DNA of 64,000 nucleotides from an uncultured Chloroflexia bacterium (GCA_963720755.1 CAVRGP010000006.1:1-64000); one strand, 5' to 3'. Positions 16,079 through 17,537 are shown, counted from the stretch's first letter. Numbers and translations: made by a program. Notes: generated by a model from the sequence alone, not told the origin.

Positions 16079-17537
16079 AAGACGCCTGCCAGCCACGATC
16101 GAGGACCTCGCCGGTCGACGAGCTGCCCGCTGGATCCGCGAGAGCACCGCCGGCCAGTTCGACCGCTACGGTCCCGAGGCCCAGGCCGAGATGCAGGACC
16201 GCGCGATCGCCCGGCTCGGCCTGGTCGACTCCGGGCTCGCCTGGCGGGCCGCCCATTCCGGGCGGACGGTCTACCGCTCGGCGGAGATGGTCGACATGCT
16301 CGGCTCGGCCCAGCGTGGCGAGTTCGACGTCCTCCTCGTCGGCTACGTCTCGCGCTGGCAGCGCAACCTGCGCCGAACACTCGAGCTCCTCGAGGACACC
16401 CTCCATCCGGCCGGTGTCCCGGTCTACTTCTGCGACGAGGAGATCCTGTCGTCGTCCGAGCGCCACTGGGACCAGCTCGTCGATGAGGCCAAGGATGCCG
16501 AGCGCTACAGCCGCCGGCTGTCGCGCCGGATCAAGGAGGGCTATGCCTCCAAGCTGGCGAAGGAGCGCGACCCGGGCGGCCGCCCGCCGTTCGGCTTCCG
16601 GCGCAACGCGGCCAAGCTGCTCGAGCCCGACCCGATCGCCTCGCGACGGTCCGGCGCGTGTTCGAGCTCGCCGCGGCGGGCCTGCCCGACCGCGATGTCG
16701 CGGCGGCCGTCGAGCTGCCACTCTTCACCGTCCGCGGGATGCTGACCTCGCCGCTGTACGTCGGGCGACTGCGCGATGGCGAACCGGCCCGCTGGGCACC
16801 GCTCGTCCCGGGCGGCCGAATGGGAGGCCACCCAAGGCGACCCGCGCCAAGCGGGCGACGAATACCAGTCGGCCGGCCGATCCACGCCGACCCGTACGCG
16901 CTCGACATGCTCCATTGCGCCGCCTGCGGCAAACGGCTCACCGGCGACACCGGCTACTACCGCCACCGCGAGCCGTGCCCACCCTTCGTGGCCGCCCGAC
17001 CCGAGCACCGCGGTCGCGGCCGGACCCTTGGCCACGCCTACCGCCGTGAGCTGTACGAGCAGATCGTCGAGGAACTGCTCGCCGAGGCCTCCGTCGGTGC
17101 ATCGGCGATCGCCAGCGTGGTCGGCGAGGTGAACCGGGCGACATCAGCTCCCGATCGCCTGGCACCCGATCGGATCGCTCGCGAACGTGAGCGCGCGATG
17201 GCCCACTACCTCCGAGATCGGGACGCGTCGCGGCTCGAGCAGACCATGACTCGTCTCGACCAGGAACAGGCGGCGGCCGAGACTCGCGAGCGACCGGACG
17301 ACATCCCGGCCGATGTCGCGGTCCGCTTCGTCCAGGACCTGCCCGAGACCTGGCGGAAGGCCGAGGGCGGCTCGGGGCGCCAGCTCCTGGCGAGCGCCCT
17401 GTTCGACCGGATCGACGTGCTGGGGATCGCAGGAGGCGACCGTCCACCTCAGCGCGCATGCCGTCCGACACGGCCTTGCGGCAGCGCTCCCGGCTGAGAT
17501 GGGAATACTCGTAAGTGGTCGGGGCGAGAGGATTTGA
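16076..17537 (+). pseudogene. Large serine recombinase (integrase), about six single-base frameshifts as assembled
   Basis: RWIREST catalytic motif, FDVLLVGYVSRWQR, GGRPPFGFRR recombinase domain, CAACG zinc ribbon, coiled coil; pieces in ORFs 16191, 16658, 16776, 16315 and 17313; ends VSGRGERI* inside the tRNA. Confidence 0.85.

Follow-up and report, generated by a model that had tools for sequence, protein, structure and literature searches.

The window analysed in this study is a stretch of 64,000 nucleotides from an uncultured Chloroflexia bacterium (GCA_963720755.1 CAVRGP010000006.1:1-64000). The ARAGORN program called an intact tRNA-Pro(CGG) gene on the minus strand at 17516-17592, and the Rfam tRNA model RF00005 matched positions 17519-17592 with 63.3 bits. 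A 17-bp sequence, TGGTCGGGGCGAGAGGA, occurs in the window as an exact direct repeat with two copies, at 6636-6652 and 17516-17532, and the start of the repeat coincides with the encoded CCA end of the tRNA. When up to two mismatches were allowed, 0.08 matches were expected and none of 100 shuffled sequences contained two or more, which rules out a chance origin of the repeat. [quoted passage not shown] The present 3' end of the gene was supplied by the element, and the copy at 6636-6652 (plus strand) is the displaced tRNA 3' end, which forms the core of attL.

The chromosomal flank of the element (6434-6635) together with the core is 93% identical in a genome of the same genus (G017), and the sequence after the core is different there. 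On the minus strand of that locus (L107, contig G017:C2) cores are found at 649 and 2024, the second 1375 nt further on, with a different P' arm; in that genome the corresponding chromosomal site holds other elements. A search of 30 relatives with positions 5000-6635 gave significant matches in only two and did not find an empty attB among them. Only G017 of these two reaches the core, and its site is occupied by a different element. A second proline tRNA gene, tRNA-Pro(TGG), lies 12 kb downstream in the window at 29808-29884 on the minus strand.

The cargo of the element is an intact RHS-repeat gene of the polymorphic toxin type on the minus strand at 7668-12857, which encodes 1729 amino acids (Pfam DUF6531, E 4.8e-12; RHS_repeat, E 7.3e-12) and forms one unbroken open frame of 5.2 kb. 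Downstream of it on the same strand is an open reading frame of 237 amino acids (6805-7518) without a Pfam match, which by its position could be the immunity gene of the RHS protein. Another open reading frame on the minus strand, 310 amino acids at 13193-14125, also has no Pfam match. A Replic_Relax gene (plus strand, 14632-15601; PF13814, E 1.2e-15) is broken. Its frame changes at a +1 insertion near 15476 when compared with the related locus L007, and contigs of relatives lack one base at 15476. In addition, no ATG, GTG or TTG was found upstream of its domain. At the place where L007 and the related protein P0016 have GTG (M-H-G-D-V-V) the window has GTC, which may represent a lost start codon besides the insertion. 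One soil-metagenome run (X1) contains contigs over 8196-15754, from the RHS gene to Replic_Relax, at approximately 94-99% identity (for example, five differences in 675 nt), which indicates that a close copy of the element exists in another sample.

The recombinase gene lies on the plus strand at 16076-17537 and encodes a large serine recombinase, identified by the Pfam Resolvase domain (PF00239) with E 8.8e-10 in the window and E 1.7e-16 to 5e-9 in four relatives. The W-x-R-E-S motif is invariant in 38 and in 72 aligned sequences, and residues C280, C283, H296 and C300 of the zinc ribbon are invariant in the family alignments. The Pfam Recombinase domain (PF07508) scored 18-20 bits in all four relatives, against a cut-off of 21.1, and the window fragment did not match it. 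Intact homologues are 485-516 amino acids long. The window gene was aligned at the DNA level with four intact homologues (L002, L003, L005 and L007), and six single-base indels were called: insertions near 16080, which falls just after the ATG at 16076, and at 16814, 16834, 16891 and 17429, and a deletion after 16630. As a result the recombinase is split over three frames, 16080-16745, 16487-17497 and 17250-17537.

The last of these frames ends GTA AGT GGT CGG GGC GAG AGG ATT TGA, or VSGRGERI and stop, and the final 22 bases of the gene, stop codon included, lie antisense within the tRNA-Pro gene. [quoted passage not shown] When the same frame (f1) is read from the left core, GRGER is followed by SQADTSRVKVWIVSERCRPGVRRSA, a stretch of 25 residues with the end RRSA, and by a TGA at 6727-6729. 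This virtual attP-form tail, 25 codons and the stop, lies in the P' arm at 6652-6729 on the plus strand. Because the core is present at attL, no joining of ends is needed to read the tail, and the claimed exchange of a single Ile for 25 residues could be read directly from the left core. The frequency of stop codons estimated from the base composition, 66-69% G+C, is approximately one codon in 45, and control frames after other cores are open for 1 to 86 codons. By this estimate 25 open codons are by themselves within chance expectation, and thus the significance of the tail comes from relatives of the integrase and not from the window.

A protein search identified 149 relatives, and C-termini were counted for the best 120 of them; as the sequences are themselves relatives, the counts are not independent of each other. 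Half of the proteins (60 of 120) end in GRGER plus one residue, which is I in 52. Another 35 extend 23-45 residues past GRGER, 32 of them within 23-33 residues. Ala is the last residue in 24 of these 35 long forms, compared with an Ala frequency of 0.14, and 17 end in [ST]A. The remaining proteins include two with shorter extensions and 23 with a truncation, a frameshift or a different type of core. Scanning of species genomes gave 80 loci, nearly all of them in metagenome-assembled genomes (MAGs) titled Chloroflexota or Candidatus Limnocylindrales. These proteins form a large family of large serine integrases of temperate phages and small integrative elements, mostly in Chloroflexota.

The frame in which the core is read is characteristic of each subfamily. 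Of the core copies at the genome loci, 24 are located in tRNA-Pro; the integrase reads 13 of these in frame f1 and ten in frame f2, and one was left unassigned. In the 13 f1 junctions the integrase ends in GRGER followed by a single Ile and the stop. In the ten f2 junctions the integrase frame crosses the entire tRNA gene in antisense direction. The f2 sister subfamily (L023, L024, L026, L028, L048-L052, L054, L060 and L070) reads the tRNA-Pro core in a register shifted by one base from that of f1. A third group is found at tRNA-Arg(CCG) and ends in ARPTGFEPATFGSGGRRSIH, that is, ARPTG before the junction and FEPATFGSGGRRSIH after it. The integrated ends therefore contain one tRNA-encoded residue in f1, 25-50 in f2 and 15 in the tRNA-Arg group. 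In intact homologues the coding frame thus reaches the core, and the frame of entry is not random.

For a wider census, 1.8 billion cluster representatives were searched with a profile, and 352 of them were identified at E<=1e-30. Of the 147 newly listed proteins 51 are full-length, and end types were assigned for these. Of the 51, 22 end in peptides that resemble an antisense tRNA T-arm, namely GLEPPT, GIEPAT, GFEPPT or GRGERI, and the differences among these ends indicate that several different tRNA sequences are read. The other 29 end in Ala in 16 cases and in [ST]A in 14. These non-tRNA ends share the recurrent motif ..R[IV]xIxGRxEWL..R.[ST]A, even in proteins with 35-40% identity to the group of the window.

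The two kinds of end were related to the state of the DNA. At loci on viral contigs the long form is present in 19 of 24 cases, with Ala at the end in 13 of the 19, and the copies in phage genomes carry a further tail of approximately 22-38 residues that often ends in [ST]A. All four phage contigs examined (L086, L087, L090 and L092) have recombination and replication genes upstream of the integrase gene, while genes for terminase and portal proteins follow it. The downstream genes also include one for a major head protein in L092 and one for head morphogenesis in L090. All four are phage genomes that carry attP. By sequence, the short form is tied to the tRNA junction and the long form to the P'-arm junction, and the long form is thus assigned to the unintegrated state. 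The placement of the att crossover inside the recombinase frame, with an exchange of the C-terminus on integration or excision, had been proposed from the window alone and is backed by these relatives, in which integrated copies end in tRNA residues and phage copies carry the tail.

In MAGs, many of the long forms occur where one element abuts the next in a tandem array at the same tRNA (L005, L008, L032, L053 and L054). In such arrays an integrase may read the arm of its neighbour, at times in a frame foreign to that arm (L015 and L035). The tRNA-Pro(CGG) gene is a hot spot in the five loci with tandem junctions. Between two and four elements, 1.5-11 kb in size, stand in a row there with the same core at every boundary, and integrases of one subfamily read into the arms of elements of another. 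A viral contig of 20.9 kb from IMG/VR (L096) contains two convergent long-form integrase genes of the tRNA-Arg type, which end at 11539 (plus strand) and 18578 (minus strand) and have nearly identical tails.

The att site itself was examined for symmetry. In four of four phage attP sites there is an imperfect inverted repeat of 9-18 nt centred between core nucleotides 15 and 16, and a fifth site, of the Arg type, has only a short palindrome. In the window, 17503-17530 and the reverse-complemented sequence of 6651-6678 agree at 14 of 28 positions; the two are in register and have the same centre. From this symmetry we infer a serine-type attP of approximately 50-60 bp, with the crossover at the GG at 17530-17531 in the T-stem region and with the putative P half-site and attR core at 17503-17532 on the plus strand. 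The half-sites would flank the crossover, so that integrase codons on both sides would double as the predicted binding site of the integrase. The 17-bp repeat was also considered as an overlap region of the tyrosine type; this was ruled out, since the enzyme is a serine recombinase and the centre of symmetry of attP is at the right end of the repeat. The length of the identical core is most readily explained if the element has to restore the tRNA 3' end.

Virtual attP sites were constructed from consecutive cores in one locus, with the left arm read in the frame of the right-end integrase. Ten of the 15 virtual tails of the f1 type obtained in this way are 22-26 amino acids long, and the five atypical ones have 1, 7, 20, 37 and 62; seven of the 15, that of the window included, end in Ala and eight do not. 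For f2, an identical tail of 38 amino acids ending in RSVRSA was found in five of seven elements. The ratio pN/pS was then compared between the cognate frame and the two other frames of each tail class. It was 0.31 in the cognate frame of the RSVRSA class (n=7; other frames 2.17 and 1.19) and 0.24 in that of the WKTA class (n=4; 4.32 and 1.26), which fits evolution as coding sequence in the cognate frame only. The pattern is weaker in the QIRGC class (n=8; 0.59, with 2.09 and 0.75 in the other frames) and in the first nine codons of the window's class (n=13; 0.55, with 0.86 and 1.53). The window's P' arm belongs to a class of 13 distinct arms that share approximately 26 nt after the core, and these nucleotides double as the inferred DNA half-site; the distal tails of this class cannot be aligned. 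The conservation expected of an attP-side tail was therefore found in the recurrent length and end of the tails of relatives, but within the window's own class alignment was limited to the first nine or so codons. The f2 subfamily reads these P' arms in a different frame, where a stop is reached after 7-10 codons, which indicates that the long frame is not used for some arms.

AlphaFold models were analyzed for two long-form relatives, P0005, the closest to the window, and P0153, which comes from a more uniform tail group. The P0153 model has an overall pLDDT of 92. A strand at residues 487-491 is followed by a loop at the junction (492-499, pLDDT 67), and the tail then forms a strand at 500-504 (block pLDDT 95) and a helix at 510-519 (block pLDDT 86). 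The loop residues ARPARG resemble the core-encoded ARPTG of the tRNA-Arg group. The tail of the P0005 model has low confidence (pLDDT 40-56), and heterogeneous aligned tails are probably behind this result. The P0005 model matched solved large serine integrases over its full length in Foldseek (E 2.6e-14 to 1e-9), and in VIA the P0153 model matched 9dxh_A with Z 17.4 over 445 residues and Bxb1 with Z 14.6. Both models have long paired helices after the zinc ribbon, at the place of the coiled coil. The solved integrases (Bxb1, LI, phiC31 and 9dxh) align with the P0153 model only up to residues 472-483, so that roughly its last 40 residues have no counterpart in the alignments. As modelled, integration would exchange a C-terminal extension specific to the family and leave the canonical domains intact.

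Taken together, the element of 10.9 kb probably carries an integrase of a family that has attP in its own gene, in which integration exchanges the C-terminal extension, and the copy in the window is probably a dead, fixed island; we hold this reading with good, though not full, confidence. In the proposed mechanism attP would be contained in the 3'-terminal part of the integrase gene, where the core identical to the tRNA would encode a short stretch of protein. Beyond the crossover there would be a further 22-38 or so codons, predicted to form a strand and a C-terminal helix in one modelled relative and often ending in [ST]A. Integration at the GG in the T-stem region would part these codons from the gene, and the integrated copy would then end in residues encoded antisense by the tRNA. 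The phage-borne and the integrated DNA would in this way encode two isoforms, while the tRNA gene would be restored. Our best guess is that loss of the extension alters the activity or the stability of the integrase and so favours the integrated state.

Three other accounts of the tail were weighed. The integrase might functionally end at the core, with the codons after it open merely because stops are rare and with the conserved part being DNA, that is, the P' half-site and perhaps a terminator hairpin. Such incidental read-through would agree with the unremarkable length of the window's open frame at this G+C content and with the 1 to 86 open codons of the control frames, and also with conservation over only 26 nt or so past the core in the window's arm class, with the early stop of f2 in the same arms and with the poorly modelled tail of P0005. 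However, the tail lengths cluster at 23-33 residues in 32 of 35 long forms, substitution of the coding type is confined to the cognate frame in two classes, the R[IV]xIxGRxEWL-type motif is common to relatives of 35-40% identity and to other tRNA targets, and the P0153 tail is modelled with confidence; we thus consider incidental read-through unlikely. If the tail is functional, it might be a built-in directionality device, in which the full-length form made from unintegrated DNA would be fit for attP x attB and the tail-less form would be switched to attL x attR or locked off. This more specific proposal is quite unlikely as it stands. By analogy with mycobacteriophage BPs, for which C-terminal tags on Int and Rep are documented (PMC3694055), the tail could instead be a degradation tag that would make the phage-borne integrase short-lived and leave the integrated form stable. 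Small residues followed by Ala do recur at the C-terminal end (24 of 35, 13 of 19 and 16 of 29 in the three samples above), but the P0153 tail is modelled as a folded strand and helix and not as disordered, and several tail classes end in VG, AG or AS; we consider a degron very unlikely. The exchange of a C-terminal extension, which may act in directionality, in stability or not at all, is retained as the preferred reading for the family.

Whether the copy in the window still takes part in such an exchange depends on the reality of its indels, which could be consensus errors of long-read assembly at a strain-variable hot spot, the one in Replic_Relax included; the integrase would then be intact and the element still mobile. 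Five of the six integrase indels are single-base insertions and several fall within or next to short homopolymer runs, as such errors might. The in-frame parts of the gene are 85% similar to intact homologues, which is the similarity of intact members among themselves, and frameshifted copies are also found in several other MAGs of few contigs (L006, L018 and L040). Short-read Logan contigs of four sequencing runs, placed on 6300-17800, lack the window's indels at the respective places; all of them come from relatives and hence are not decisive for the window. At most 15% of the words sampled from 15900-17700 occurred in any one public sequencing run, and no circle joint was present among 15 joints listed of 50 in the same Logan contigs. 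On the other hand, the adjoining RHS frame of 5.2 kb is unbroken and the indels are thus not evenly spread, frameshifted copies also occur among proteins of other sources, for example those ending in WEYS, and decay of mobility genes beside a kept cargo is a common fate of islands. We therefore regard an intact, mobile copy as possible but doubtful. With six indels in the integrase and one in Replic_Relax beside an intact RHS gene, the integrase of the window is probably non-functional by its sequence, both mobility genes are probably real pseudogenes, and the element is probably a fixed, decaying island. The view in the earlier note of the integrase as a state-dependent switch thus stands for the gene arrangement of the family and not for the window, where the switch is probably not operating. 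Broken copies of the integrase gene are frequent. Five proteins from other samples (P0014, P0043, P0096, P0103 and P0104) are frameshifted near the C-terminus and end in WEYS or EYP, at a TAA just before the core, and the same stop closes one of the window frames at 17512-17514.

For the host genome the significance is limited to a probably fixed island by which an RHS toxin was acquired. The wider meaning lies in the size of the family, with 352 cluster representatives at the threshold given above, in which the tRNA gene would be restored and the integrase gene rewritten on integration. Serine integrases are widely used tools for genome engineering, and the control of their direction is an active question; the solved structures matched here were released in 2026. 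If the isoforms differ in activity, the family would offer a natural, self-contained state sensor and many new tRNA-directed integrases with known att sites. If the extension is in fact a directionality device, the state of the DNA, and not a separate directionality factor alone, would set the direction in a whole tRNA-targeting family.

The family resembles the characterised large serine integrases of the Bxb1, phiC31, LI/A118 and SPbeta types in its resolvase catalytic domain, its full-length fold, its zinc ribbon and an attP with an inverted repeat of approximately 50-60 bp. It differs from them in several respects. The attP inside the integrase's own gene is a feature of the family here and is not established for the characterised enzymes; attP of phage R4 may overlap sre. 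The target is a tRNA 3' end that is restored by the element, and attP and attB share 16-17 bp. When compared with the solved structures, the family has a C-terminal extension of approximately 37 residues past the aligned chains. A 2014 paper on Islander describes serine integrases as not known to target tRNA genes (PMC4383910), and in a 2017 review all integrases listed at tRNA sites are of the tyrosine type (PMC5704250). Full-text searching, in which subscription journals and later TIGER and Islander work were largely outside coverage, found no description of serine integrases with attP in their own gene; such integrases may already be in print.

Among systems with a recombination site inside a gene, phage Mx8 is the closest. 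Its attB is in a tRNA-Asp gene, and approximately 112 residues are exchanged for 13. The attP of Mx8 lies within the int coding sequence, and integration produces a recombinant gene with a new 3' end; the phage and prophage integrases, IntP and IntX, differ, with activity described as modified rather than abolished (PMC6070905). The family here shares with Mx8 an attP inside int, a state-dependent 3' end and two encoded isoforms, as judged from the genes. It differs in that Mx8 Int is a tyrosine recombinase, whereas these enzymes are large serine integrases with a simple inverted-repeat attP, and in that only 22-38 residues are exchanged. Membership in the Mx8-type protein family was ruled out, since Pfam and the fold matches identify the recombinase as serine type.

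The SSV-type or "suicidal" integrases of archaea also have the recombination site within the integrase reading frame, so that integration alters the gene (PMC7253208). However, they are tyrosine recombinases whose gene is split in two and inactivated, while the family here keeps its canonical domains together. In the mycobacteriophages BPs and Brujita attP lies in a coding sequence and the viral and prophage forms of the protein differ (PMC3694055). The earlier note had cited this repressor case as a known parallel, but Mx8 is closer, with attP in int itself (PMC6070905). In BPs and Brujita attP is in the repressor gene, integration is carried out by a tyrosine recombinase and experiments have shown what the tag does, while here attP is in the integrase gene. 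Integration-dependent immunity of the BPs type does not apply for the same reason, and no repressor gene was identified beside the integrase in the window from open reading frames and Pfam. Mx8, the SSV-type elements and BPs all use tyrosine recombinases. At the level of the gene the principle is known from Mx8, in a harsher version from the SSV type and, for a repressor, from BPs, while the genes compared here belong to large serine integrases.
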